Source: Candidatus Kuenenbacteria bacterium HGW-Kuenenbacteria-1 (GTDB lineage Bacteria; Patescibacteriota; Patescibacteriia; UBA2591; PGYQ01). Taken from it: DNA of 33,970 nt. The position numbers and the translations under genes were made by a program. Below are positions 1-30,899 of the stretch, piece after piece (within the stretch, counting starts at the first letter, position 1; every line of letters starts with the position of its first letter). The notes beneath the pieces are model-generated. The model was not told the origin of the DNA. It was given only the letters and a program-made list of their open reading frames with translations, and ran no database searches. The stretch is from positions 1-33,970 of the forward strand of contig PGYQ01000004.1 of the NCBI GenBank assembly GCA_002839745.1. Reading direction: 5' to 3'.

Positions 1-2
1 AA

Positions 3-2741
3 GATATAACAATAAAAAGCAATGTTATTATTCAGAAAAAACTTACTGTTCAAGGCGGAGCAACTTCTCAATTTAATGGCGCGTTAAAGGTTTTAGGGGG
101 TGGAGATGAAAAAGGTTTAATGATTGGTGATGCTACTTTGAAGTTAACAACAGATCAAAATTTAATTTATGGAGTAATAAAAGCCGATTCTGTTGGCAAT
201 TTAATGCTTTTACAAACAGGTGCTGGGAATGATAAATTTAAAGTTGATAAAGATGGAAATGTTACAGCGACAAAATTTAATGGAAATTTAACTGGAAATG
301 TTACTGGATCTTTAACTGGCAATGCAACTTCAGCCACAACCGCTACTTCTGCAACAACCGCTACTTCTGCAACAACCGCGACAAATTTAGTAGGCGCGCA
401 ATGGAGTATTCCTTATCAAAGCACTACAAATATTACGGCTATGTTGGCATCAGTAGCCGAAGATTCTGGCAAATTTTTAAAATCCAATGGAGCAGGAGCT
501 CCTACTTGGGCGACTGTTGCAGCTGGATCTCAAACTCCTTGGACAAGTGATATTAACGCCAATAGTAAAAATCTTTCTAATGTAGGAAACATTAGCTTGC
601 CGGATACAACAGCAACAACGGGTATAATTAAAGTTGGCACAGATAGATTTATTCATAATTTTGGGACTAATAATGTTTTTGTGGGTAGAAATGCTGGAAG
701 TTTGGAAATAGAAGAAGGGACTGGAAAGAATAATTCTGCATTAGGCAGTTCAGCTCTTTCTTCGCTCGTTAACGGCGATAATAATATTGCTATTGGAACT
801 TTAGCTCTTCAAAATAATGCATTTGGCAATAATAATATTGCAATAGGAGTTAAAGCTCTTGATGGTTATTCTTCTGATGGTGGTGATAATGTTGCTATAG
901 GAAATTCAGCTCTTTTAAAAGCTGAAAGTGGTAACTTTAATACTGTTCTTGGATCTAATGCAGGACATTTTAATTATACGGGAAGTAATAATGTTCTTTT
1001 GGGTTATCGAGCGGGATATGGAGCAGCAAATAGAAATTTATCAAATAATGTTCTTATTGGATATAAAGCTGGTTATACTATTAATAGTGGAGACTACGGT
1101 ACAGGAGGCATTGGCAATATAATTATTGGATATAATCAGGATGTGCCAACCCCAATAACTAGTTATCATCTTAATATTGGCGGGTTAATTTATGGAGATT
1201 TACTTAAGGGCAATGTCGGGATTGGGACAACAGGACCACTCGCGTCTCTTGAAGTAAAGCGAAATACACCGGATACAAATTTTGCCGCATGGATTGAGGG
1301 AACTGATGACAAAAATTATGGGTTGGGAGTGAATATTTTAAATACAACATCAAACAAAGCCATCGCTGATTTTAGATCTGGCAATGTTTCAAAACTTTTC
1401 ATCAGAGCGGATGGTAATGTCGGCATTGGAACAACAACTCCGAGAGCGTTTTTTGAAGTAAAACAAAATATAGCGAATATGAGTTTTACCGCATGGATTG
1501 AGGGGGCTAATGACTACAATGATGGGTTAGGAGTGAGTATTTTAAATACAGCATCAAACAAAGTCATTGCTGATTTTAGTTCTGGTAATGTTTCAAAACT
1601 TTACATCAGAGCAGATGGTAATGTCGGAATCGGGACAAGAGTACTGAGGAGAAAATTAGATATAAATGGAGATTTAACTACAAATGGTAATCTTTTAACT
1701 CAAATAGAAGGTGGTGCGTATTTTGGTAAAGTTGGGATTAAAGAAAATCAATGGGGTTTGAGTAATTACGGCAATACTTGGACAGCAACAGGTTCAGCAA
1801 AAAAGAATTGGTGGGCAGTTGCTATGTCTTCTGACGGCAAAATCCAGACAGCTGTTATTAATGGTAGTGACTACATCTATGTTTCTTCTAACTATGGTAA
1901 CACTTGGACAGCAACAGGTTCAGCAAAGTATTGGTTAGGAATTGCTATGTCTTCTGACGGCAAAATCCAGACAGCTGTTGCTTATGGTGGCTACATCTAT
2001 GTTTCTTCTGACCATGGCAACACTTGGACAGCAACAGGTTCAGAAATGAATTGGTTAGGAATTGCTATGTCTTCTGACGGCAAAATCCAGACAGCTGTTA
2101 CTTATGGTGACCACATCTATGTTTCTTCTAACTATGGTAACACTTGGAAAGCAACAGGTTTAGCAATGAATTGGCAAGGAGTTGCTATGTCTTCTGACGG
2201 CAAAATCCAGACAGCTGTTGCTACTGTTTGGGGCGGAAGACAAATCTATGTTTCTTCTAACTATGGCAACTCTTGGACAGCAACAGGTTCAGTAATGAAT
2301 TGGCAAGGAGTTGCTATGTCTTCTGACGGCAAAATCCAGACAGCTGTTACTTATGGTGGCTACATCTATGTTTCTTCTGACCATGGCAACACTTGGACAG
2401 CAACAGGTTCAGTAGTAATGAATTGGCGGGCAGTTGCTATGTCTTCTGACGGCAAAATCCAGACAGCTGTTGCTTGTGATGGTGGCCAAATCTATGTTTC
2501 ATATGCAAATTCGTTTATAAATGGTAATGTTGGGATAGGGACAACAAATCCTCAAAGTGCTTTACATATTCCGGATGGTAAATATATTCAAATTGAAGAT
2601 AATAATACAGGAACTCCACCTGTGGCAGATTGTGATAATAATAACGAAAGAGGAAGAATAAGTATTGACACAACTAATAATCGTCTCTATATTTGTAATG
2701 GAGCGTCAAGGGGTTGGGATTATATTCCTTTAACAAATTAA
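3..2741 (+). CDS. 5'-truncated giant repeat surface/adhesin-like protein (tail-fibre-like modules plus six Asp-box/BNR-like repeats)
   Basis: The frame is open from position 3, with no stop upstream of ATG 120, so the N-terminus lies outside the window. It contains (SATTAT)x3 from an 18-nt tandem repeat (330-383) and NxxAxG-type repeats like trimeric-adhesin or tail-fibre heads. It also has four GNVGIGTT motifs, a duplicated ~70-aa module, and six ~40-aa units carrying SxxxGxTW Asp-box signatures. Confidence 0.8.
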   Translation, partial: DITIKSNVIIQKKLTVQGGATSQFNGALKVLGGGDEKGLMIGDATLKLTTDQNLIYGVIKADSVGNLMLLQTGAGNDKFKVDKDGNVTATKFNGNLTGNVTGSLTGNATSATTATSATTATSATTATNLVGAQWSIPYQSTTNITAMLASVAEDSGKFLKSNGAGAPTWATVAAGSQTPWTSDINANSKNLSNVGNISLPDTTATTGIIKVGTDRFIHNFGTNNVFVGRNAGSLEIEEGTGKNNSALGSSALSSLVNGDNNIAIGTLALQNNAFGNNNIAIGVKALDGYSSDGGDNVAIGNSALLKAESGNFNTVLGSNAGHFNYTGSNNVLLGYRAGYGAANRNLSNNVLIGYKAGYTINSGDYGTGGIGNIIIGYNQDVPTPITSYHLNIGGLIYGDLLKGNVGIGTTGPLASLEVKRNTPDTNFAAWIEGTDDKNYGLGVNILNTTSNKAIADFRSGNVSKLFIRADGNVGIGTTTPRAFFEVKQNIANMSFTAWIEGANDYNDGLGVSILNTASNKVIADFSSGNVSKLYIRADGNVGIGTRVLRRKLDINGDLTTNGNLLTQIEGGAYFGKVGIKENQWGLSNYGNTWTATGSAKKNWWAVAMSSDGKIQTAVINGSDYIYVSSNYGNTWTATGSAKYWLGIAMSSDGKIQTAVAYGGYIYVSSDHGNTWTATGSEMNWLGIAMSSDGKIQTAVTYGDHIYVSSNYGNTWKATGLAMNWQGVAMSSDGKIQTAVATVWGGRQIYVSSNYGNSWTATGSVMNWQGVAMSSDGKIQTAVTYGGYIYVSSDHGNTWTATGSVVMNWRAVAMSSDGKIQTAVACDGGQIYVSYANSFINGNVGIGTTNPQSALHIPDGKYIQIEDNNTGTPPVADCDNNNERGRISIDTTNNRLYICNGASRGWDYIPLTN
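1761..2500 (+). repeat. Six tandem, near-identical 120-129 nt coding repeats (Asp-box/BNR-like blades)
   Basis: The 36-mer gctatgtcttctgacggcaaaatccagacagctgtt recurs at 1821, 1944, 2064, 2184, 2313 and 2436. The flanking tatgtttcttct...ggcaacacttggacagcaacaggttca is also conserved. Confidence 0.9.
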
Positions 2742-2821
2742 TCACAAATTTATTTTTTTTGGGCATTTAGTTTTTTCCCCTATCCTTGGCATTTGTTATT
2801 TTTATTGGCTAATTTAAACAA

Positions 2822-2858
2822 AAAAAAATAGCTATTTTACTATAATAGCTATTTTTTT
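2822..2858 (+). terminator. A-tract / hairpin / T-tract (bidirectional-type intrinsic terminator) after the surface protein gene
   Basis: In aaaaaaatagctatt-ttactat-aatagctattttttt, the palindromic atagctat arms (2828-2835 and 2845-2852) are extended by A/T runs. Confidence 0.5.
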
Positions 2859-2920
2859 ATTACAATTTTTTTATTTCTAATATGTTAACACAATGAAAAA
2901 AAGTGAGACCCTACATAAAA

Positions 2921-2949
2921 TTGTGTCTGGCATAGTTAAAATGTATAAT
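2921..2949 (+). promoter_or_regulatory. Putative transposase promoter inside the IS left end (TTGTGT-17-TATAAT)
   Basis: TTGTGT at 2921-2926, a 17-nt spacer, TATAAT at 2944-2949, and the ATG at 2979. Confidence 0.4.
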
Positions 2950-2978
2950 TAATTTTTATTAATTTAATTTTAAAAACT

Positions 2979-4178
2979 ATGCAAGACAAAAATAATAAGA
3001 CAACAAAAATTTTAGAGAAAAGTATTAAAAGTTTAAGAGAAAATTTAGATTCATTATCAATGGATAAGTTTATTGCAACAACTATTGAATCTTTAATGAG
3101 TATAGAAAGAGATGAATATTTGGAAAAAATTAATGATCCAAAAACAGATAAAGGAAATGGATATTATGGAAGAGCTATGAAAAGTCTTTCAAGCAATTCT
3201 CTTGTTGTAAACATTCCAAGAACAAGAGCAGGTTTGTTTTCTCCAGCAACATTAGAATTGTTAAAAATAAATAGAGGAAAGGTCGATGAAATTGCTTTGT
3301 CTTTATATAAAAGAGGAATGACCTCGCAAGACATTCAATCATTTCTTGATGAAGTTTTTGAAGAAGGAATGTCTCCAGCTAAAATATCAAATTTAGCGGA
3401 AACGTTTAATAAGTTTAGAGTTGCTTGGCAAAACGCAAAACTTGAAAAACATTATAAAGTTGTTTTTGGTGATGTTATTTTTATAACAGTAAGAAGAGAT
3501 AATGAATATACAAAAGAAGGCGCTTTTGTGGCTTATGGCGTAAGAGAAGATAATCGTAGAGAATTGCTTATTTTAGAGCTTAATCCGACTGAAGGAGCTA
3601 TATTTTGGGGTGAATTATTAAAAGATTTAAAAGAAAAAAGAGGTGTCGAAAAAATAGATTTATTTGTTGCTGATGGGATTCAAGGATTAGAGGATGAAGT
3701 ATTAAAATATTTTCCTGAAGCAGAATTTCAAAAATGTGTTGTTCATAAAATGAGAAATATTTTAAACAAAACTAGACCAAAAGAAAAAACAGAAATAGCA
3801 GAAGATTTAAAAGAAGTTTTTGATAATTTTGATAAAGATGCTACTATAAAGAAAGCTTTGGAAAAAGTAAATAATTTTTTGAAAAAATGGAAAAATAAAT
3901 ATCCAAATTTTAAAAATTATTTTAAAGAAGGAAACATAGAATATTATTTTACTTACATAAAATTTAATCCTGTTGTAAGAAGAATGATTTACACGACAAA
4001 TAGTCTTGAAAATTTAAACAGACAAATTAGAAAAACAACAAAAAATAAATTATCATTTGAATCACCTGAAAGACTGCTTGATTATTTATTTATGATTATT
4101 AAAGAATTTGAAGAAAAAAATTATATGAAATATCCAGTTTCAAATTATAAATATTTTAAGAAAATTACAAAAAGATAA
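2979..4178 (+). CDS. IS256/Mutator-family transposase
   Basis: DGIQGLEDEVLKYFPEAEFQKCVVHKMRNIL and YTTNSLENLNRQIRKTTK match the conserved DDE-region motifs of IS256 transposases (D-G-x-x-G-L, CxVH, YTTN-x-x-E-x-x-N). The 399-aa length is typical. Confidence 0.9.
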   Translation: MQDKNNKTTKILEKSIKSLRENLDSLSMDKFIATTIESLMSIERDEYLEKINDPKTDKGNGYYGRAMKSLSSNSLVVNIPRTRAGLFSPATLELLKINRGKVDEIALSLYKRGMTSQDIQSFLDEVFEEGMSPAKISNLAETFNKFRVAWQNAKLEKHYKVVFGDVIFITVRRDNEYTKEGAFVAYGVREDNRRELLILELNPTEGAIFWGELLKDLKEKRGVEKIDLFVADGIQGLEDEVLKYFPEAEFQKCVVHKMRNILNKTRPKEKTEIAEDLKEVFDNFDKDATIKKALEKVNNFLKKWKNKYPNFKNYFKEGNIEYYFTYIKFNPVVRRMIYTTNSLENLNRQIRKTTKNKLSFESPERLLDYLFMIIKEFEEKNYMKYPVSNYKYFKKITKR

Positions 4179-4398
4179 AAAAGCTAGACACACTTTTATG
4201 AACGGTCCCAAAAGTTTTTTGAAAATAGGAGGGAAAAATGTGAAATAATAATAATATTACAAGCGCAACACTTTGTCAATGGTTATTTAACTTAAAAGAA
4301 AAGGAATCACCATTCATCCTCATTTTTTTTGTTATCTCTTAATAAAGATGGAGGTTGTGTAAAAATTTTTGACAAGTATTTAAAATAAGACTACTAAC

Positions 4399-4443
4399 TT
4401 ATTTAGTCCATGGAACAGTCTATGGACTATTGGCTAAAATTAG
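4399..4443 (+). repeat. R2 hairpin module, copy 1 (A part only)
   Basis: The sequence is ttatttagtccatggaacagtctatggactattggctaaaattag. It contains the inverted repeat agtccat(g/a)g-N6-ctatggact. Confidence 0.85.
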
Positions 4444-4482
4444 TCCAAAAGCAATCTCTTTGTTCTTGTATTTGTATTTTTA

Positions 4483-4620
4483 TTATTTTAGTCCATAGAA
4501 CAGTCTATGGACTATTGGCTAAAATTAGATAAAATTGGCTAAAATTAGATAAAATAATTTGGGTTTAATGGTTAAAAATGGTTGCTATAATAGTTAAATT
4601 TGTTTTATTATTAGAATAAA
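4483..4620 (+). repeat. R2 module, copy 2 (A+B, with an internal 20-nt tandem duplication)
   Basis: The same hairpin with a perfect 9-bp stem, then ataaaattggctaaaattag duplicated. The shared B part follows: ataaaataatttgggtttaatggttaaaaatggttgctataatagttaaatttgtttta. Confidence 0.85.
4583..4591 (+). promoter_or_regulatory. Extended -10 promoter element TGcTATAAT inside R2 (second copy at 4862-4870)
   Basis: An exact TGnTATAAT match on the + strand in both long R2 copies. Confidence 0.4.
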
Positions 4621-4658
4621 TATTAAATTTATTATTAAAACATTTTAACTATTATGAC

Positions 4659-4710
4659 AAAATTAATTATACATTTTTACTATGCTAGACACAATTTTAT
4701 GTAGGGTCTC
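4659..4710 (-). repeat. Solo 52-bp inverted copy of the IS256 left end
   Basis: The reverse complement of 2905-2956 matches 4659-4710 at 50/52. It retains the TTGTGT-17-TATAAT promoter, pointing leftward. Similarity stops exactly at 52 nt. Confidence 0.85.
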
Positions 4711-4723
4711 AAAATATATAACT

Positions 4724-4754
4724 AAAACCGGGTTTTAATTTAAGACCCGGTTTT
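4724..4754 (+). terminator. Bidirectional-type hairpin terminator
   Basis: aaaaccgggt-tttaatttaag-acccggtttt: a 10-bp stem with A/T-run flanks. Confidence 0.45.
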
Positions 4755-4782
4755 AAAAATGATCCAAATTTATTTTAGAAAT

Positions 4783-4900
4783 TTATTTAGTCCATGGAAC
4801 AGTCTATGGACTATTGGCTAAAATTAGATAAAATAATTTGGGTTTAATGGTTAAAAATGGTTGCTATAATAGTTAAATTTGTTTTAAGATTAGAATAAAA
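4783..4900 (+). repeat. R2 module, copy 3 (A+B)
   Basis: Near-identical to 4483-4620, but without the internal 20-nt duplication. Confidence 0.85.
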
Positions 4901-4912
4901 TAATATAATTTG

Positions 4913-4959
4913 GATTATTTTTTTTCTTTTTTTCATCCCCACCGTGTTAACACAGTGGG
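4913..4959 (+). repeat. R3 boundary module, copy a (T-rich tract plus palindromic hairpin)
   Basis: The sequence is gattattttttttctttttttcatccccaccgtgttaacacagtggg. The hairpin is ccac-c-gtgttaacac-a-gtgg. Confidence 0.85.
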
Positions 4960-5036
4960 GGGTGGAGTTATGGGTTGGGGTGTTGTGAAAAAAATTAATT
5001 TTAATTTAATCACTAACCCCAACCCTATTTTTTCCC

Positions 5037-5780
5037 CTATTCTATCCTCCTTGGGGAGGCTGGGTCGGTGCAGTTAATTATTGCATCAACCATTCTTTCC
5101 CCCCCTCTCTGAGAGGTAAATAAGTACGAGATCTTAACGATCCCCCCTTTTACCTCAAGAATACGACAATTATTAGGGGCTGTCCAGTCGCCCCCATTAA
5201 CTTCAAAAAACGAAAACTGCATGGTGGTCAGATCCACTATGCAGAGGCCGGCTTTTTCACCGGCCTTACCTCCCGTTCCTACTCCTATGTAGGCACGGGT
5301 TCCATCCACCACGATGGAAAAGCCAACTCCAGGAATAGAGAGCTGGCCTGTCAGTAACGGAGTATTAGGGTCGCTGACGTCGACCCGCAACAACAGATTA
5401 TTGCCCTTTGTTAAAAGGGCACCCCCATCTGCTGTCGCAATATAGGCTATACTGCCTATATTAATCGCAATTTGGGGTATTTGATAAGAGGGTACCCCAA
5501 CCCTTGCCAAGTCGAAACTTGGCTCTCTTGGCTCAGCATAAGCGACCCATTCGTCGCTTATCCTTGCCTTCGGTACCACCACCACTGACGGTGGAGGCAA
5601 CATACCGTGGTCAACTACCACGGTAGTTCCATCCGGGAGTATCAAGGGAGCGAGTTCTGGCGGAACTCGCAATTCCTTTGCTTGCTGGTAGATGGCCCCA
5701 GCAAGACTTTTCGCATTGGCTGGGGCAATGGCCCCAGCCAACAACGCTACTGTTACTACGCTAACTAATAACTTTCTCAT
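5037..5780 (-). CDS. Secreted protein of foreign composition, possibly with LVIVD-like beta-propeller repeats
   Basis: N-terminal signal peptide MRKLLVSVVTVALLAGAIAPANA. GGAG sits 9 nt upstream of the ATG. About 48% GC (29/60 at 5041-5100). The segments ...LLLRVDVSDPNTP... and ...GLCIVDLTT... resemble LVIVD repeats; that family call is weak. Confidence 0.7.
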   Translation of the reverse strand: MRKLLVSVVTVALLAGAIAPANAKSLAGAIYQQAKELRVPPELAPLILPDGTTVVVDHGMLPPPSVVVVPKARISDEWVAYAEPREPSFDLARVGVPSYQIPQIAINIGSIAYIATADGGALLTKGNNLLLRVDVSDPNTPLLTGQLSIPGVGFSIVVDGTRAYIGVGTGGKAGEKAGLCIVDLTTMQFSFFEVNGGDWTAPNNCRILEVKGGIVKISYLFTSQRGGERMVDAIINCTDPASPRRIE

Positions 5781-5814
5781 TTTTTTTGTCTCCTTTTAAT
5801 TTAAATTTTTTGGG

Positions 5815-6291
5815 CTAGAAGAAAAAAAATAGCCCAAAATTTAGAATTTTTTCTTCGGTTTTTTTTTCATCTCCCACGCCAGAGAGATTTAAAAAAACCT
5901 TGCCATAATCTATGTTTAAAAAAATTTTTTTGGTGAATTTGAGCTCAATTCCTCCAAAAAAATTTTTTGAATCTGTAGATCCACTTATTTTGTCGCCTTC
6001 ATCATTGACGACTGTGAATCTACCTTTACCTACTCCCATCCCGGAGTAAAAAATTACCCTCCAGGCGGGATTAAGGCGGTAGATACCTCGGATGGTACCT
6101 ACTAGAACTCCAGGAACAGCGCTTCCTTGGAGTTCTACGCCAAGATGATCAAGAATGATCACCTTGGCATTAAGTGAGTCGAGTCCAAACCCGACTCCAC
6201 ACATAATATTATCATCGGAAGTGGCATAGGCTGGCGCAATTACCAGCATCATCAATGCCATTACTACTACGCTAACTAATAACTTTTTCAT
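5815..6291 (-). CDS. Small secreted protein, possibly beta-barrel-like with a C-terminal Phe
   Basis: Signal peptide MKKLLVSVVVMALMMLVIAPAYA. AGGAGG sits 8 nt upstream of the ATG. Alternating G/hydrophobic pattern, ending in ...NFGLFFFF. The 5' two-thirds are GC-rich and the 3' third is AT-rich. Confidence 0.6.
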   Translation of the reverse strand: MKKLLVSVVVMALMMLVIAPAYATSDDNIMCGVGFGLDSLNAKVIILDHLGVELQGSAVPGVLVGTIRGIYRLNPAWRVIFYSGMGVGKGRFTVVNDEGDKISGSTDSKNFFGGIELKFTKKIFLNIDYGKVFLNLSGVGDEKKTEEKILNFGLFFFF

Positions 6292-6426
6292 TTTTTTATC
6301 CTCCTAAGACTTGAATATACCGCTATAAATCTAGCGGTATTGTGTTTGAAAAGAAATTTTTTTTATGCCATGTTTAGGGGTCGTATCCCCAAACATTAAA
6401 TTCTTATTTTCAAACAAAATACCACT

Positions 6427-6466
6427 CTTTTGTCAATCTATTTATTCACTTTTGTGTTACCATATT
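6427..6466 (-). repeat. R4 boundary/promoter module, copy a
   Basis: cttttgtcaatctatttattcacttttgtgttaccatatt is 38/40 identical to 7647-7686. It carries TTGACA on the minus strand (6431-6436). Confidence 0.85.
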
Positions 6467-6490
6467 TATGGGTGTTGAAAATTTATAGTT

Positions 6491-6535
6491 GATTATTTTT
6501 TTCTTTTTTCGTCCCCACCGTGTTAACACAGTGGG
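6491..6535 (+). repeat. R3 boundary module, copy b
   Basis: gattatttttttcttttttcgtccccaccgtgttaacacagtggg has the same orientation as 4913-4959. It differs only in T-run lengths and one a/g change. Confidence 0.85.
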
Positions 6536-6706
6536 AATTTAAAATTTATAATTTTTTAAATTATTAAAGGATGAATTTTCTCTTTATTAAATAATTAGAA
6601 AAGGTTTCTGATTATTTAGCAATGAAGAAAAAAGAAAAAAAATAACCTCTATTCGCATAATAAAATAGGCAAAATTTGTCTGACAAATTTTACACTTGAA
6701 ATATTT

Positions 6707-6841
6707 TGTCATTCCCGCCCTTGATGAAACTCGTGGCAGGTTCCAAAGGGAATCCAGAGAAGACTGTCATCCTCGCGAATGCGGGGATCCAGATTTAATT
6801 AACTTATGAAACCTGGATTCCCGTTGTCACGGGAATGACAG
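6707..6841. repeat. GC-rich REP/MITE-like hairpin repeats (GTCATTCCCG...CGGGAATGAC type)
   Basis: Three units: 6707-6757, 6764-6792 (ctgtcatcctcgcgaatgcggggatccag) and the inverted 6812-6841 (cctggattcccgttgtcacgggaatgacag). The last two form a ~78-nt inverted pair. Confidence 0.7.
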
Positions 6842-7077
6842 AAAGAGAATAATCATTCAAATTCCGATACAATAAAATAAGCCTTTTCACACATTTAAGT
6901 CTCCCTGATAGAGTTTGCCCCGTTGAATAACTGGGAAAAATTTAGAGGGTTTCTGTTTTTAAAATCCCCCAACCCCCTTTATCAAGGGGGCTAATCAATT
7001 CTGTCTCCCTGATAAGGGGGATTAAGGGGGTTTCTTTTTCTTTGTAATATTCAAATTCCGATGCAATAAAAATTATT

Positions 7078-7325
7078 TTATTGATAATAATCGTTGATAT
7101 CAATAATTTCAATTGTGCGTTTTTCTCGAAAAATAAAAATTACCCTATACTTATGATTAATTCTGAAACTCCAGATTTTCATTTGTTTTGGTTCAAGAAG
7201 TTCTGTTTGCAAACTTGGATAAAAAGGATTTTCTTCAAAAAATTTCTTTTGTTTTTCAAATTTTTTTTAAGATTTTTCTTTTTAAGATATTTTTCAATAT
7301 CTGGATGAATAGGGAAAATTTTCAT
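7078..7325 (-). pseudogene. RelE/ParE-superfamily toxin, frameshifted in an A8 homopolymer
   Basis: ATG 7325 opens a 48-codon frame. Adding one A to the A8 run (plus-strand T8 at 7261-7268) gives an 82-aa ORF ending at 7078. Its C-terminal half is NPFYPSLQTELLEPKQMKIWSFRINHKYRVIFIFREKRTIEIIDINDYYQ, typical of RelE/YafQ-like toxins. Confidence 0.7.
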
Positions 7326-7337
7326 TATTTTTTAAAA

Positions 7338-7565
7338 TTATATAAAATAAGATGAGCGTTTTAATCCTTTTTCTAAACTTTTTAAAAAATCATCATTATA
7401 TTTATTTGTTTCTTTAAAAGAATTTATAATTTTTTTTGTATTTCGGATAGGAGGAGAAGCAAAAATATCCTCTTTTACTACTTGTTTAAAATATTCAAAT
7501 CGAAAAAAATTTTCAATTAATTTTTGATATTCTTTTTTCGGAATAGTAATAGTTTGAGTGTTCAT
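7338..7565 (-). CDS. Putative antitoxin of the RelE-like toxin
   Basis: A 75-aa ORF 12 nt upstream of the toxin start on the same strand, the usual antitoxin-first arrangement. No family was recognised. Confidence 0.5.
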   Translation of the reverse strand: MNTQTITIPKKEYQKLIENFFRFEYFKQVVKEDIFASPPIRNTKKIINSFKETNKYNDDFLKSLEKGLKRSSYFI

Positions 7566-7646
7566 AGAATTTTATTTTTAAAATATTTTTATTTTTAGAT
7601 ATAATTTTTAAAAAACTTATTATCATATTTTTAACACAAAATTATG

Positions 7647-7686
7647 CTTTTGTCAATCTATTTATTCACTTTTATGTTAACATATT
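7647..7686 (-). repeat. R4 boundary/promoter module, copy b (TTGACA-17-TGtTAAAAA on the minus strand)
   Basis: Sequence cttttgtcaatctatttattcacttttatgttaacatatt. On the minus strand, TTGACA (7651-7656) is followed by a 17-nt spacer ending in TGT, then TAAAAA (7628-7633). This lies upstream of the antitoxin start at 7565. Confidence 0.6.
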
Positions 7687-7784: not shown

Positions 7785-8882
7785 ATGTTAAAATCATTTC
7801 TTTCAAAAGAACAAAATTATTTGGGCGTTGATATTGGAATGGGCAGTATTAAAATAGTGGAATTAAAAAATAATAAAGGTAAACCGCAATTAGTTACTTA
7901 TGGGTTTGTTGAGCAGAGTGCGGATATTATTCATGATAATTCCGAAGAAGCAAAAAAATATATTGCTTCTTTAATTTTAAAAACTTGTAAAAAAGCCGGG
8001 GTATCTACTCAAAAAGTAATTACTGGGTTGCCTACTTTTTCTGTTTTTAATTCAATTATAAATTTGCCTTTAATCTCCAATAAAGATTTGCCTGCGGCAA
8101 TTAAATGGGAAGCTAAAAAATTTATTCCTCTACCAATAGACGAGGTAATTTTGGATTGGAAAATATTAAAAGAAGAAACTTCTAAAAAAAATAAAACAAA
8201 TTTAGTTGAATCTAATTTAGATCAAAAAGAAATAAAAACAAAAAAAGGATTGCGTATTCTTTTGACAGTTGCGCCTAAAAATTTAATTAAAAAATATGTA
8301 GATATTTTTAAAGAAATTAATTTTGAACTTTTAAGTTTAGAAACGGCATCTTTTGCTCTTACACGTTCTTTGGTTGGATATGATTTAAATCCAATAATGA
8401 TCGTTGATATAGGGGCGGCCATAACAAGTGTTATTGTTGTTGAAAAAAGTGTCCCTATTTTAAATAGAAGTATTGATGTGGGAGGAATTTCTGTAACGCA
8501 AGCCATTGCTAATAGTTTAAATATTAATTCTAAAAGAGCGGAACAATTTAAACGTGATATAGGAATATCATTAAATGATTCTACACAGGAAGGAACTTCT
8601 AAAATAATTCAAACTATTTTAGATAATATTATTAATGAAATTCGTTATACAATTGAACTTTACGAACATCAAGGTTTAAAAAAAATAGAAAAAATTATTC
8701 TTACTGGCGGTTCGGCTTATCTTCCAAATTTACCTGATTTTTTTTCTAAGGTTTTAGAAAAAAGGGTTTATGTTGGGGATCCTTGGTTTCAAACTATTTA
8801 TCCTTTGGAATTAAAACCAGCCTTAGAAGAGATCGCTCCTCGATTATCAATAGCCATTGGTTTAGCAATGAGAGAAATATAA
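7785..8882 (+). CDS. pilM: Type IV pilus assembly ATPase-fold protein PilM
   Basis: Actin/FtsA-like fold motifs: GVDIGMGSIKIVEL near the N-terminus, IVDIGAAITSV and ILTGGSAYLPNL. Size 365 aa, followed by pilN/pilO-like genes. Confidence 0.85.
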   Translation: MLKSFLSKEQNYLGVDIGMGSIKIVELKNNKGKPQLVTYGFVEQSADIIHDNSEEAKKYIASLILKTCKKAGVSTQKVITGLPTFSVFNSIINLPLISNKDLPAAIKWEAKKFIPLPIDEVILDWKILKEETSKKNKTNLVESNLDQKEIKTKKGLRILLTVAPKNLIKKYVDIFKEINFELLSLETASFALTRSLVGYDLNPIMIVDIGAAITSVIVVEKSVPILNRSIDVGGISVTQAIANSLNINSKRAEQFKRDIGISLNDSTQEGTSKIIQTILDNIINEIRYTIELYEHQGLKKIEKIILTGGSAYLPNLPDFFSKVLEKRVYVGDPWFQTIYPLELKPALEEIAPRLSIAIGLAMREI

Positions 8883-29005: not shown

Positions 29006-30859
29006 TTATTCAACAGTTTTTCCTACTAAACAAACAGCGCCCCAGGGTTTGTAGTGACTTTTAAAGGTTTTACTTTTTTTTTCGCCATTAGGATAAATAA
29101 CAGTTTGTGTAAATTCTGCATCAGCGCCTTTGTGCGCAATTTCAATACATTTTTTATTTCCAGGTTTTAAATCTTCTGTTTCAATAATTTTAATTTTTGG
29201 CGAAGCAACAATATTATAAATTTTAGGTTTTGTTGTTTCAACTTTTCGTCCATCTTTAATTCCCCAAAATTCAAAAATTAAATTATCGCCTTCTATTTTA
29301 GCTTGAATCAAAATGTAATTTACAGAATCATTTTTGAATTTTAAATCTGGATGAGGATTATAAATAGCTGCATCTGTACCAGCTGGTTCATAATATTGAA
29401 CGCGATAAGAATGCGGGCGTCTTTCTAAAATTGGAAGTCCGGCATTTAAAGCAGCTCTGAATAATGTTGTTCCTATTTGGCACAATCCTCCTCCATATTC
29501 TTTGGTTGTTTTGTTGCCTTTAATAACCAATTCTTGTAAATAGCCAGTTTTTCCATTTATTGCTCCTAAAGTTTTAACAGTTGAAAATTCTTCCCCGGGT
29601 TTAATTAATAAACCATTTAATGTTATTATTGCTGTTTTAATATTTTGTCGTCGATTTTTTGGACTTCCTTTAAAGTTAGATTTTCCTATGCCAATTATTT
29701 CTTTGATGCCTAAATTATTAGCATTTTCTGTAGTAATTTCAGGTTCTACTTCATCAACAATTAGTTCAATTGCTTTATTTTTTCTAAAAGCAATTTCTTT
29801 ATTTATTTTTTGATAACTTTCTTTTTTATTTAATTTTCTCCCTTTTTTACTTATTTGAAATTCAGAAATTTTTTCTTTGTCAGTTATTTGTTTGTCTATT
29901 AGTTCGGGCGGATTAATTTTAAATTTAGCATTTTGCGCTTCTTGATTTATTTCTGTTTCAATTATTTTTAATTTTTTTTCTATTTTTTCTTGATTAAATC
30001 CAATAATAATTTCTTCTTGATATTCTTCTAAATCTTTAAATTGATTGGGTTGAAATTCTAGCCATTCTTTACCTTCGTCTTTATTTATTTCCCATTTTTT
30101 ATTTTCATAATTTAAAGTAATGGGGAATAAATTAATAATTTCTTGAGCAATAGGAATAAGTGTTTCAATTTGCTTTTTGTTTATTTTAGGATTTTCGATG
30201 ATTAAAGTCAAGTCAATTGGTTGAATATCTAAAGATTTTAAATTTTGTTCCAATTCTTCCATTGCTTTTTGATAATCAAAAATATAGCCTTCCTCCTCTT
30301 TAATAGTTGCTATTTGATAATTTTTATTAATTTCGAAGTCAGCATTTTTAGGAGATTTTTCTAATGATTGAAAATTATCTTTTAAAATTTTAATTAATTC
30401 TTCTTTTTTTAAATCATATTTTATTTTTACTTGATAACCATAAAAAAAAGCATTTATTTGTTCTTTGATAAAATTTTTTTGATGATTTCTGCCTATTTGA
30501 AAAGCTTGTTTAATTGTATTTTCTGAATCAATCTCTAAAAGATTATATGATAAATCTGGATCAGTTAAACCTATTGTGAAGGTATCAATTTTAACAGTTT
30601 TATCTTTCCAAATAAAAACAAATCCTTTTTGATTAATTTGTTCTACTTTTTCTTTTAAAAGAATTGTTGCTTGTTCTTGAGTTTTTCCAGATAAATTTAA
30701 ATTTCCTATTTTTATTCCTGGATAAATTTTTTGATTATAATATCCTTCAAAAATTCCTATAGAAATAAGTAAAAAAAAAATTACCCCTCCGAATATCCAA
30801 ACAAAAGGGCTAATTTTTTTTTGTTTTTTTTTAAGAAAATTTATTTTCATAAAGAACAT
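29006..30859 (-). CDS. VanW family protein (N-terminal TM anchor)
   Basis: The C-terminal VanW domain has the motif GGGLCQIGTTLFRAALNAGLPILERRPHSYRVQYY. The N-terminus has a single TM segment. Confidence 0.8.
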   Translation of the reverse strand: MFFMKINFLKKKQKKISPFVWIFGGVIFFLLISIGIFEGYYNQKIYPGIKIGNLNLSGKTQEQATILLKEKVEQINQKGFVFIWKDKTVKIDTFTIGLTDPDLSYNLLEIDSENTIKQAFQIGRNHQKNFIKEQINAFFYGYQVKIKYDLKKEELIKILKDNFQSLEKSPKNADFEINKNYQIATIKEEEGYIFDYQKAMEELEQNLKSLDIQPIDLTLIIENPKINKKQIETLIPIAQEIINLFPITLNYENKKWEINKDEGKEWLEFQPNQFKDLEEYQEEIIIGFNQEKIEKKLKIIETEINQEAQNAKFKINPPELIDKQITDKEKISEFQISKKGRKLNKKESYQKINKEIAFRKNKAIELIVDEVEPEITTENANNLGIKEIIGIGKSNFKGSPKNRRQNIKTAIITLNGLLIKPGEEFSTVKTLGAINGKTGYLQELVIKGNKTTKEYGGGLCQIGTTLFRAALNAGLPILERRPHSYRVQYYEPAGTDAAIYNPHPDLKFKNDSVNYILIQAKIEGDNLIFEFWGIKDGRKVETTKPKIYNIVASPKIKIIETEDLKPGNKKCIEIAHKGADAEFTQTVIYPNGEKKSKTFKSHYKPWGAVCLVGKTVE

Positions 30860-30888
30860 GACTTGTTGAAGACAGTCTTCAACAAGTC
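30860..30888 (-). promoter_or_regulatory. Perfect 13-bp hairpin abutting the VanW start codon, downstream of hsp20
   Basis: gacttgttgaaga-cag-tcttcaacaagtc. On the minus strand it lies between the hsp20 stop (30900) and the VanW ATG (30859). Confidence 0.4.
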
Positions 30889-30899
30889 AATCTTTTATT

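Follow-up and report, generated by a model that had tools for sequence, protein, structure and literature searches.

Alternating R3 and R4 repeats between a surface-protein gene and pilM in a Kuenenbacteria-like genome: stacked cassettes or the footprint of local duplication?

When two short repeat modules alternate in strict order around different cargo genes, do they record a stack of integrated cassettes or the scar of local duplication? The question is raised by a 5-kb island in the chromosome of a tiny-celled groundwater bacterium whose very AT-rich genome is Kuenenbacteria-like (Patescibacteria/CPR). In the window, by which we mean the whole stretch of 33,970 nt that was analysed, this island lies ~5 kb from dnaA and is bounded on the right by pilM (7785-8882, plus strand; Pfam PilM_2, E 2.5e-43), the first gene of a conserved core block; the remaining 26 kb consist of housekeeping genes. 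Two modules, R3 and R4, run along it in the order R3-X-R4-24 nt-R3-Y-R4, and the copies of each are direct repeats, ~95% identical. Order and orientation are as an earlier note on this DNA had described them, and the modules are non-random (shuffle expectation 0). The R3 copies do span 4913-4959 and 6491-6535 once the T-tract is counted, and the gap between R4a and R3b (6467-6490) is indeed 24 nt. The two units measure 1,576 bp (1,714 bp in the full allele) and 1,220 bp. By our own arithmetic, direct orientation plus alternation has a prior of roughly 1/12 when there are two pairs, so that the order of the modules at n = 2 is weak evidence. We incline, if only slightly, to the view that the alternation was left behind by local, non-site-specific duplication, and that the stretch between a surface-protein gene and pilM is a rearrangement scar.

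R3 is a module of ~47 nt composed of a T-tract and a GC-rich palindrome. Its two copies, R3a (4913-4959) and R3b (6491-6535), both assigned to the minus strand, are 95% identical over 41 nt (4919-4959 versus 6496-6535) and share an exact 23-nt core, CCCCACCGTGTTAACACAGTGGG, at 4937 and 6513, where shuffles expect 0. The palindrome has 9-bp inverted arms, CCCCACCGT and ACAGTGGGG, around a 6-bp GTTAAC spacer, with the same C...A asymmetry and orientation in both copies. That it forms a strong hairpin, as claimed earlier, was confirmed: the best folds are those of the minus-strand RNA (-19 and -17.1 kcal/mol, z -3.4 and -4.7), R3a forming a GC-rich stem of 10 bp closed by a UUAA loop. It does not have the layout of an intrinsic terminator, since what comes after the stem on the minus strand is an A-tract, the T-tract lying ahead of it on the plus strand, and a scan of the window for terminator-like sites called R3 on neither strand. 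The homology between R3a and R3b reaches the palindrome's 3' base and goes no further. The flanks of R3b, on both sides, resemble those of the single R3-like palindromes found in two Patescibacteria MAGs, L012 (DnaA 82% identical), where the palindrome occurs once with a T-rich left flank, and L011; R3b is thus probably the ancestral-type copy. One pair of the R3-like stem shows a compensatory change, and covariation over the four sequences, too thin a set, is non-significant (64/500 shuffles).

R4 is 40 nt long in the window; in three further assemblies of this locus its length is 81 nt. R4a (6427-6466) and R4b (7647-7686), both on the minus strand, agree at 38 of 40 positions and share a 27-nt core that is exact in the two copies (0 expected). 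At full length (7606-7686, minus strand) R4b covers the promoter region of a toxin-antitoxin (TA) operon and ends in the palindrome ATATGTTAACATAT. Of the description of R4 as a promoter module, the part concerning R4b stands, since TTGACA is followed after 17-18 nt by TAAAAA/AAAAAT (minus strand, 7656-7627), but R4a of the window has no -10 element and, judged from its sequence, is no functional promoter. The three other assemblies contain 138 bp more between 6426 and 6427, an indel flanked by imperfect 21-nt direct repeats, and their 81-nt R4a is 95% identical to 7606-7686. The only palindrome in R4b is AT-rich and of 14 nt; R4a has none. A supposed R4-like core at 4271-4280 proved to be merely another promoter-like site (TTGACA-17-TATTAT).

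The earlier note had suggested looking for further copies of R3 and R4, and none came to light in genome, metagenome or viral collections, which do not include this organism, or in the window outside the island, where neither module is dispersed. Neither the R3 core nor R4 had a match in the metagenome contig collection; that collection did not return the JGI contig that carries R3a either, so that its null result for R3 is uninformative on this organism. A relaxed R3 core had seven matches in the genome contig collection against a chance expectation of ~8.7 (our own arithmetic), five of them unrelated hairpins in GC-rich genomes and two intergenic palindromes of Patescibacteria. In viral collections R3 had only two chance matches, inside a phage coding region, and R4 had none; blastn comparison of the modules and the cargo with plasmid and phage sequences was unproductive.

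The cargo of unit 1 is as previously described, with two minus-strand genes for secreted proteins: one of 247 aa (5037-5780; LVIVD/beta-propeller-like repeats; AlphaFold model of low confidence, pLDDT 46) and one of 158 aa (5815-6291; weak OMP beta-barrel-like match). Their 33-nt 5' ends are near-identical. With GC contents of 50% and 39%, respectively, they stand well above the window average of ~28%, and their GC3 of 0.49 and 0.36, compared with ~0.13 in core genes, could result from recent import. A homologous two-gene operon (36% and 40% amino acid identity) is found in related groundwater contigs (L034-L039), where it converges with a homologue of the BNR surface-protein gene (47-53% amino acid identity), and there too, in independent Hainich samples, it sits in AT-rich flanks. 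Because these relatives keep the operon beside the surface-protein gene while IS256, R3 and R4 are all absent from their contigs, cargo 1 is not some arbitrary set of captured genes. The stem-loop at 4972-5025 (minus strand; -31.1 kcal/mol, z -4.8), immediately downstream of the 247-aa gene, resembles the terminator of the L034 homologue in its G-rich stem but lacks the U-tract present there. The non-coding sequences bordering the operon in the window could not be aligned with those of L034 or L037 (p = 0.25 and 0.70), and CCYCCAAACATT, a motif found on both sides of the L034 operon, shows no enrichment in the window.

Unit 2 is of a different make. It holds a remnant of the start codon and 5' region of scpA (6656-6691, minus strand), 94% identical over 36 nt to the Kuenenbacteria relative L026, where this sequence abuts the scpA ATG; the gene proper is gone from the locus. 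GC-rich palindromic repeats of the GTCATTCCCG...CGGGAATGAC type follow (6700-7071), including a 171-bp GC-rich block between 23-nt direct repeats (6855-6877 and 7049-7071), with only a weak Wolbachia sRNA-like Rfam match. The earlier note had read the cargo as GC-rich hairpin repeats plus a RelE-type TA pair; repeats, antitoxin and HigB/RelE-like toxin are all there, but the toxin gene (7078-7325, minus strand) is frameshifted. Its frame switch is evident from tblastn with intact homologues, and on the joined, frame-corrected reading the product scores 29.3 bits with Pfam HigB-like_toxin (cut-off 27 bits); it is either a pseudogene or a homopolymer sequencing error. The gene in antitoxin position (7338-7565, minus strand; 75 aa) is intact and has 39 homologues, the toxin gene always coming after it. 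The pair thus belongs to the type II TA systems of the HigB/RelE superfamily, and its gene order is kept in many Patescibacteria. Homologues at 70-72% nucleotide identity occupy varied contexts in other Patescibacteria, with homology ending at the gene ends and neither R3 nor R4 around them. Given an scpA start without its gene and a decayed toxin inside, unit 2 is a patchwork and not a discrete unit.

The left part of the island holds an IS256-family insertion sequence (2904-4210, plus strand; Pfam Transposase_mut, E 1e-72). Its Mutator-type transposase (2979-4178) lies between a left inverted repeat (IRL, 2904-2956) and a degenerate right one (IRR, 4176-4210), and an extra, near-perfect right inverted repeat (4659-4711; 53 nt, 96% complementary to IRL) is found 450 bp past the element proper. 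There is no target duplication at either candidate right end (the family norm is 8-9 bp). Three M modules (4399-4443, 4487-4620 and 4783-4899, plus strand), each a hairpin with a TGcTATAAT box, are direct repeats of 98-100% identity and occur on either side of the outer IRR. Local duplications that are short and of high identity thus number at least six within 2.8-7.7 kb, namely M (three copies), the IS256 IRR (two copies), R3, R4, the 33-nt 5' ends of the operon genes and the 23-nt direct repeat; repeats in the other 26 kb of the window are low-identity, AT-rich matches. An Rfam scan of the island gave nothing above threshold. Upstream of pilM, relatives share only ~50 nt of sequence, those with PilM identities of 81-85% carry unrelated genes, and the contig of the closest relative (PilM 95%) holds just 39 nt there. 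The scpA remnant, the unrelated genes upstream of pilM, the odd ends of IS256 and the 138-bp indel together make the locus a demonstrable site of rearrangement.

We propose the following account. R4 would have originated as the ~81-bp promoter region of the HigB/RelE-type TA operon (R4b), and its second copy, R4a, would have come to lie upstream of the secreted-protein operon, where the full-length allele would add an upstream promoter; in the window allele, a 138-bp slippage deletion would have removed the -10 of R4a. R3 would be a cis element, present once in at least one close relative, of which R3b would retain ancestral-type flanks and R3a would be a partial copy, cut off after the final palindrome base and directly adjoining the terminator stem of the operon. 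Illegitimate recombination associated with palindromes and IS256, or template switching during replication, may have copied short stretches of 23-130 nt from one site to another close by; or else a single ~1.7-kb tandem duplication may have been overwritten afterwards. Functionally, R4 may act as a promoter, and R3, instead of terminating transcription, may be a palindrome bound by a protein or a hairpin at the 3' end of an RNA.

Local duplication is favoured because the 5-kb island contains all these duplications and the other 26 kb none like them, because the locus is a site of rearrangement, and because the operon is syntenic in relatives without R3, R4 or IS256 and the TA homologues do without the modules. 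The R3-like palindromes of L012 and L011, the end of R3a homology at a palindrome base, the adjoining terminator stem without the U-tract of L034 and the like divergence (~95%) of R3 and R4 argue in the same direction. Against it count the absence of similarity between the units beyond the modules, the 24-nt filler, the high GC3 of the operon, and five clustered TGTTA(A/C)CA sites, one of which (2877-2903) looks like a hybrid, as random patch copying does not predict. Its special case, one tandem duplication of an ancestral R3-Z-R4 whose interiors were later replaced or decayed, seems to us improbable though tenable. Units of similar size and equally diverged R3 and R4 pairs are consistent with a single event, but two complete interior replacements would be required and the filler (6467-6490) would go unexplained, as no other flank resembles it significantly (p = 0.16 against the sequence after R3a). 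Alignment of the units beyond the modules, which the earlier note had named as the way to expose a simple tandem duplication, reveals no shared sequence (p = 0.16-0.94 for the flanks, except the R4 extension), and since the units share only R3 and R4, a simple recent event of this kind is not demonstrable. That the locus is an assembly artefact, with haplotypes or organisms stitched together via short shared sequences and GC-rich foreign DNA mis-joined, we consider very improbable. The contigs of four other assemblies do break between 6357 and 6599, in or near R4a, the GC jump is sharp, and the 138 bp differ between assemblies; however, contigs from ENA, JGI, NCBI and Logan reproduce 1-6426, including IS256, R3a and the operon, at 100%, an NCBI contig reproduces 6328 onward (R4a, filler, R3b, unit 2, R4b and pilM) at 99.95%, and the homologous operon likewise has AT-rich flanks in the Hainich samples.

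The remaining possibility is site-specific integration, in which R3 and the right end of R4 would be related sites centred on TGTTAACA and the recombinase would be encoded elsewhere; we regard it as unlikely. The units would then have entered as circles, leaving R3 as an attL-like and R4 as an attR-like site, and 2877-2903 would be an unoccupied or excision-product site. The positions that the earlier note gave for TGTTAACA (2883, 4945, 6521 and 7675) are its only four in the window, where 0.79 are expected and 2 of 100 shuffles reach four; the R3 duplicates account for two of them. Within the 5-kb island there is a cluster of five TGTTA(A/C)CA-centred sites, and the motif total in the window is 11 (both strands, including two coding-repeat sites) against a shuffle mean of 0.93; GTTAAC (an HpaI-type site), with 9 observed and 6.2 expected, is neither avoided nor enriched window-wide. 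The inverted site at 2877-2903 (minus strand), which abuts the left end of IS256, reads CTTTTTTTCAT-T-GTGTTAACATATTAG as reverse complement and thus looks like R3-left, TGTTAACA and R4b-right joined over a common core: over 14 nt, 2877-2890 is identical to the right end of R4b read as reverse complement (7688-7675), and 9 + 11 nt match the R3a core and the end of its T-tract. Direct orientation of all four unit-flanking sites, R3 arms and spacer reminiscent of a tyrosine-recombinase core, an IS abutting a site as IS1202-family elements target pdif/dif (PMC10132070), contig ends in or near R4a and the foreign-looking GC3 are all in keeping with integration. Opposed to it are a window that contains, as the earlier note had observed, no recombinase or integrase (the IS256-family transposase is its sole transposase), the failure to find further modules in collections without this organism, a degenerate core in R4a (GTGTTACCAT), and a hybrid site without the CCCCACC stem of R3. 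Moreover, serial integration predicts one hybrid site in mid-array, where two separate sites lie ~45 nt apart; cargo 1 is syntenic in a relative, unit 2 holds a native promoter remnant, and the TA homologues do not travel with R3/R4 sites. The bolder version, in which Patescibacteria would have a hitherto undescribed cassette system that works with a recombinase in trans, uses the TGTTAACA-centred sites for attachment and stacks promoter-bearing units near the origin region, with the site at 2877-2903 later hit by IS256, is more doubtful still. In suggesting "capture or duplication" the earlier note was fairly hedged, but self-contained captured cassettes are unsupported, given the syntenic cargo 1, the patchwork of unit 2 and TA genes that occur without modules.

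How does the array compare with known systems? The earlier statement that the modules are not integron attC sites was upheld: the only candidate cores, TGTTAAC and GTTAACA, violate the Y and R positions of RYYYAAC/GTTRRRY, the AAAAAAC on the left of the R4a-filler-R3b segment does not fit the core either, and 6400-6545 folds into an 11-bp R3 stem plus weak AT pairs instead of a single hairpin of ~57-141 nt. Neither intI/attI nor a CALIN is seen, with no integrase in the 34-kb window and just two units. Co-oriented cargo split by structured repeats, TA cargo and no adjacent integrase recall integrons and CALINs, which differ in that R4a-filler-R3b is not one long imperfect palindrome, each unit here has its own promoter and no other copies were found. 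To our knowledge, integrons are not known in Patescibacteria. A dif site comprises 28 bp (11-bp XerC arm, 6-bp spacer, 11-bp XerD arm), whereas R3 has 9-bp arms and lacks CATAA...TTATG inner arms; TTATGTTAAAT of R4b matches 10 of 11 positions of what we take to be the E. coli-type XerD arm, a consensus that may not be that of this clade, and has no XerC arm. The pdif (dif) modules of Acinetobacter, moved by XerC/XerD (PMC6449649, PMC13141974) and with sites targeted by IS1202-family elements (PMC10132070), are likewise small and recombinase-free, often carry TA pairs and have short palindromic sites with a 6-bp spacer, here with an IS beside one. In contrast to their 11-bp arms and alternating inverted C/D-D/C orientation, R3 has shorter arms without resemblance to the dif consensus, its two copies are direct, and the locus is chromosomal with only two or three sites. 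As an intergenic GC-rich palindrome, with an IS inserted beside a related site, R3 resembles REP/BIME elements, which have many dispersed copies per genome, yet within the window it is not dispersed (0 copies in the other 26 kb, one per related contig). IS200/IS605-type (HUH) elements and their non-autonomous derivatives have subterminal hairpins at either end, a conserved tetranucleotide as target or cleavage site and a TnpA in the genome; here R3 has a hairpin, the window has no TnpA, and the outer sequences of the two units do not match. The likeness is to an IS-associated plasticity zone, with short, high-identity direct repeats clustered around an IS, palindrome breakpoints, gene remnants, a deletion between imperfect short direct repeats and lost synteny with relatives, except that random patch copying would be expected to leave a less regular picture than this strict R3-X-R4-R3-Y-R4 order with its shared TGTTAACA core.

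If the cassette reading were true, this would be the first cassette-type integration system described in Patescibacteria, and a tidy repeat order at n = 2 should be taken with caution as weak evidence of one. If the ordinary reading of local duplication holds, streamlined CPR genomes would still form small plasticity zones, where an IS256 element, TA genes in decay, remnants of genes and duplications of short patches put a promoter and a palindrome to renewed use.

The two repeat families on which the earlier note built its proposal of a cassette array are real, but the capture of discrete cassettes, one of the two origins that it suggested, is not supported, given that the second unit is a patchwork and the gene order of the first is found elsewhere. 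R3, a hairpin module made of a T-tract and a GC-rich palindrome (R3a, 4913-4959; R3b, 6491-6535), and the promoter-like R4 (R4a, 6427-6466; R4b, 7647-7686) each have two copies: a 23-nt core of the former and a 27-nt core of the latter occur exactly twice, with none expected from shuffled sequences, and both pairs are 95% identical (over 41 nt and 40 nt, respectively). A gap of 24 nt separates R4a from R3b, as had been claimed, and the four reported positions of TGTTAACA were likewise recovered (0.79 expected; at least four reached in 2 of 100 shuffles). By our own arithmetic, the alternation of the modules in direct orientation has a prior probability of about 1/12 given just two repeat pairs.

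R3, the palindrome of which can be written CCAC(Y)GTGTTAACACAGTGG, forms a GC-rich stem of 10-11 bp capped by a UUAA loop, in agreement with the hairpin originally proposed, and the fold is stronger on the minus-strand RNA because a C·A mismatch turns into a G·U pair there. It is not an intrinsic terminator, since its T-tract precedes the stem on the plus strand and R3 was absent from the intrinsic-terminator scan of both strands; nor does it show, within the window, the dispersion characteristic of REP-like palindromes. The consensus-like promoter attributed to R4b is indeed matched on the minus strand; however, this match is weak by itself, since the AT-rich region holds 45 promoter-like matches versus 26 expected.

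Contigs of the same locus were found by exact-protein look-ups in NCBI (GCA_017973855.1), ENA, JGI and Logan, and these other assemblies match the window at 100% over 1-6426 and at 99.95% from 6405 onward. Three of them contain 138 bp that are missing from the window between 6426 and 6427 (100-237 in contig L001), namely 97 bp of AT-rich sequence with another promoter-like TTGACA site and the 41-nt left half of R4a, such that R4 is in fact an 81-nt module (7606-7686, 95% identical). The window allele has thus undergone a deletion between imperfect direct repeats of 21 nt, which takes out the -10 of R4a, and the position of its end points in an imperfect direct repeat suggests population heterogeneity or slippage. 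Contigs of the other assemblies terminate at points from 6357 to 6599, a hint that the assembly graph branches around R4a and R3b.

The array lies in a 5-kb island bounded on the left by a large gene (120-2741) for a BNR-repeat surface protein and on the right by pilM (7785), in a window that is very AT-rich (about 28% GC overall, 15-25% in many stretches). Downstream follow core genes, among them pilM/N/O, yidC, tRNA-Asn, dnaA, dnaE and ATP synthase. The window PilM shares 81-85% identity with proteins labelled Candidatus Kuenenbacteria or Patescibacteria, which makes the source a CPR bacterium, and in these relatives the genes upstream of pilM are unrelated to those of the window, only about 50 nt of the pilM promoter region being common to both. 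At least six short high-identity duplications, including R3, R4 and a 23-nt repeat, are crowded into the island, and the other 26 kb of the window hold solely low-identity AT-rich repeat matches. The sole strong perfect hairpin outside the island is a palindrome with a 15-bp stem, TGACTTGTTGAAGAC A GTCTTCAACAAGTCA, at 30859-30889 between VanW-like and Hsp20 genes.

The island also carries an IS256-family element. The right inverted repeat of the element proper (2904-4210) is degenerate (4176-4210). A further right repeat, this one nearly perfect, lies 450 bp beyond it (4659-4711), and no target duplication was found at either candidate right end. A module of 45-130 nt, designated M, is present three times at 98-100% identity, on both sides of the outer right repeat (4399-4443, 4487-4620 and 4783-4899), so that the stretch between the two right repeats holds M copies and a further copy is located outside the element. 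Each M copy has a perfect hairpin of 10-11 bp, AGTCCATAGA...TCTATGGACT, and after it the extended -10-like TGCTATAAT.

In unit 2, a stretch of 36 nt (6656-6691) is 94% identical to the scpA 5' region, start codon included, of a relative from the Kuenenbacteria (contig L026, 4967-5002), with no scpA gene following in the window; this remnant marks a rearrangement breakpoint. Between it and the toxin gene lie palindromic, GC-rich repeats (type GTCATTCCCG...CGGGAATGAC, 6700-7071), which contain a 171-bp GC-rich block bracketed by direct repeats of 23 nt (6855-6877 and 7049-7071), an arrangement like that of a small insertion. In Rfam, a Wolbachia sRNA family matches these palindromes weakly and below threshold. 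Many Patescibacteria contigs carry counterparts of the antitoxin-toxin pair (7067-7553), with 70-72% DNA identity, in unrelated surroundings; none of these homologues is accompanied by R3 or R4, and homology ends at the gene ends. The antitoxin is intact and the HigB/RelE-like toxin gene is frameshifted within an A/T-rich stretch (7179-7230), reflecting either a decaying module or a homopolymer sequencing error. With its scpA remnant, palindromes and frameshifted toxin, unit 2 thus amounts to a mosaic of remnants rather than a discrete cassette.

As for the secreted-protein operon of unit 1, a word-sharing search returned no relatives of its 247-aa protein, and a full HMMER scan tied it to repeat proteins of the LVIVD/beta-propeller type as well as to a single full-length homologue, P0163. 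The gene for P0163 lies on contigs from Hainich groundwater (L034-L039), behind a homologue (145 aa) of the 158-aa gene, and is convergent with a gene that shares 47-53% identity with the window surface protein; the order of a surface-protein gene and then the two-gene operon is thus common to another lineage. There, the 300-bp intergenic region contains two canonical terminators, and IS256, M, R3 and R4 are all absent. In the window, the stem-loop at 4972-5025, directly behind the 247-aa gene, is similar to the terminator stem of L034 but has no U-tract, and R3a starts 12 nt beyond it; we read 4960-4972 as a breakpoint. The operon genes (5037-6291) have GC3 values of 0.36 and 0.49, versus 0.11-0.17 for core genes and about 0.13 for the genome, and GC3 is raised also in the L034 operon (358-1630; 0.30 and 0.40); such an elevation should not have survived ancient vertical descent. 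Moreover, the 33-nt start regions of the two genes (5754-5786 and 6265-6297), which comprise the ribosome-binding site and first signal-peptide codons, are 97% identical. The L034 homologues share no such region, and the pattern resembles that of local gene conversion or duplication.

The surroundings of the homologous operon have repeats of their own. A 15-20-nt direct repeat, AAACCTCCAAACATT, flanks it in L034 (108-127 and 1847-1866) and in L035-L039, with a third, inverted copy downstream, and the similar CCCCAAACATT lies within a hairpin of the window operon leader (6371-6397). Every Hainich contig with this operon breaks off some 360-400 bp upstream, at the GC-rich palindrome GTCGGAAGTCGGACTTCCGAC (for example L037 1-45 and L038 1-12), which echoes the breaks near R4a and R3b in the window's organism.

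How, then, did the array arise? An assembly artefact is very improbable, since both junctions of the GC-rich block are reproduced in other assemblies and are real, not chimeric. We consider local short-patch or segmental duplication within an IS256-bearing rearrangement scar the most likely origin, though only modestly favored, and its variant of pure tandem duplication unlikely. Alternatively, R3 and R4 could be sites of a trans-acting site-specific system, the nearest functional analogies being dif modules (PMC6449649, PMC13141974) and pdif-targeting insertion sequences (PMC10132070). R3 and the right end of R4 have in common a T-rich tract, TCAY and (A/G)TGTTA(A/C)CA(C/T), and this motif clusters in the island (five sites), the window total being 11 matches, both strands and two coding-repeat sites counted, versus a shuffle mean of 0.93. 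In addition, directly beside the IS256 left end, 2877-2903 (reverse complement CTTTTTTTCAT-T-GTGTTAACATATTAG) joins 11 nt of the R3a left side, across the core, with 14 nt that match the R4b right side exactly, a composition that would be expected of an empty or excision-product site. However, this hybrid-looking site lacks the CCCCACC stem of R3, the R4a core is degenerate, the middle of the array shows two sites about 45 nt apart instead of one hybrid site, and the 34-kb window holds no recombinase, as already noted at first reading. R3 also departs from Xer dif modules in arm length, in the absence of dif-like arms and of alternating orientation, and, as originally judged, the modules are unlike integron attC, both its core sites and its long single hairpin being absent. 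A site-specific system is possible but unsupported, and we regard it as improbable.

Local duplication also fits with what is seen of R3 beyond this locus. A relaxed scan for its core in 596 Gbp of species-representative genomes, from collections without this organism, gave seven matches versus 8.7 by chance according to our own arithmetic, most being extended palindromes in unrelated GC-rich genomes. Two of the seven are intergenic in Patescibacteria MAGs (L012 6873-6906, L011 6148-6181), where they form a perfect palindrome, (T)TCCACTGTGTTAACACAGTGGA(A), with some flank similarity to R3b on both sides; the DnaA of L012 is 82% identical to that of the window, marking a close relative. The L012 palindrome lies near a tRNA-Gly gene and is followed, at the contig end, by the candidate start of an IS481-type transposase-like ORF. 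Across the four R3-like sequences compared, one stem pair carries a compensatory change, too little to reach significance. We take R3b to be the ancestral-type copy of a palindromic cis element conserved in the clade, and R3a to be a partial copy.
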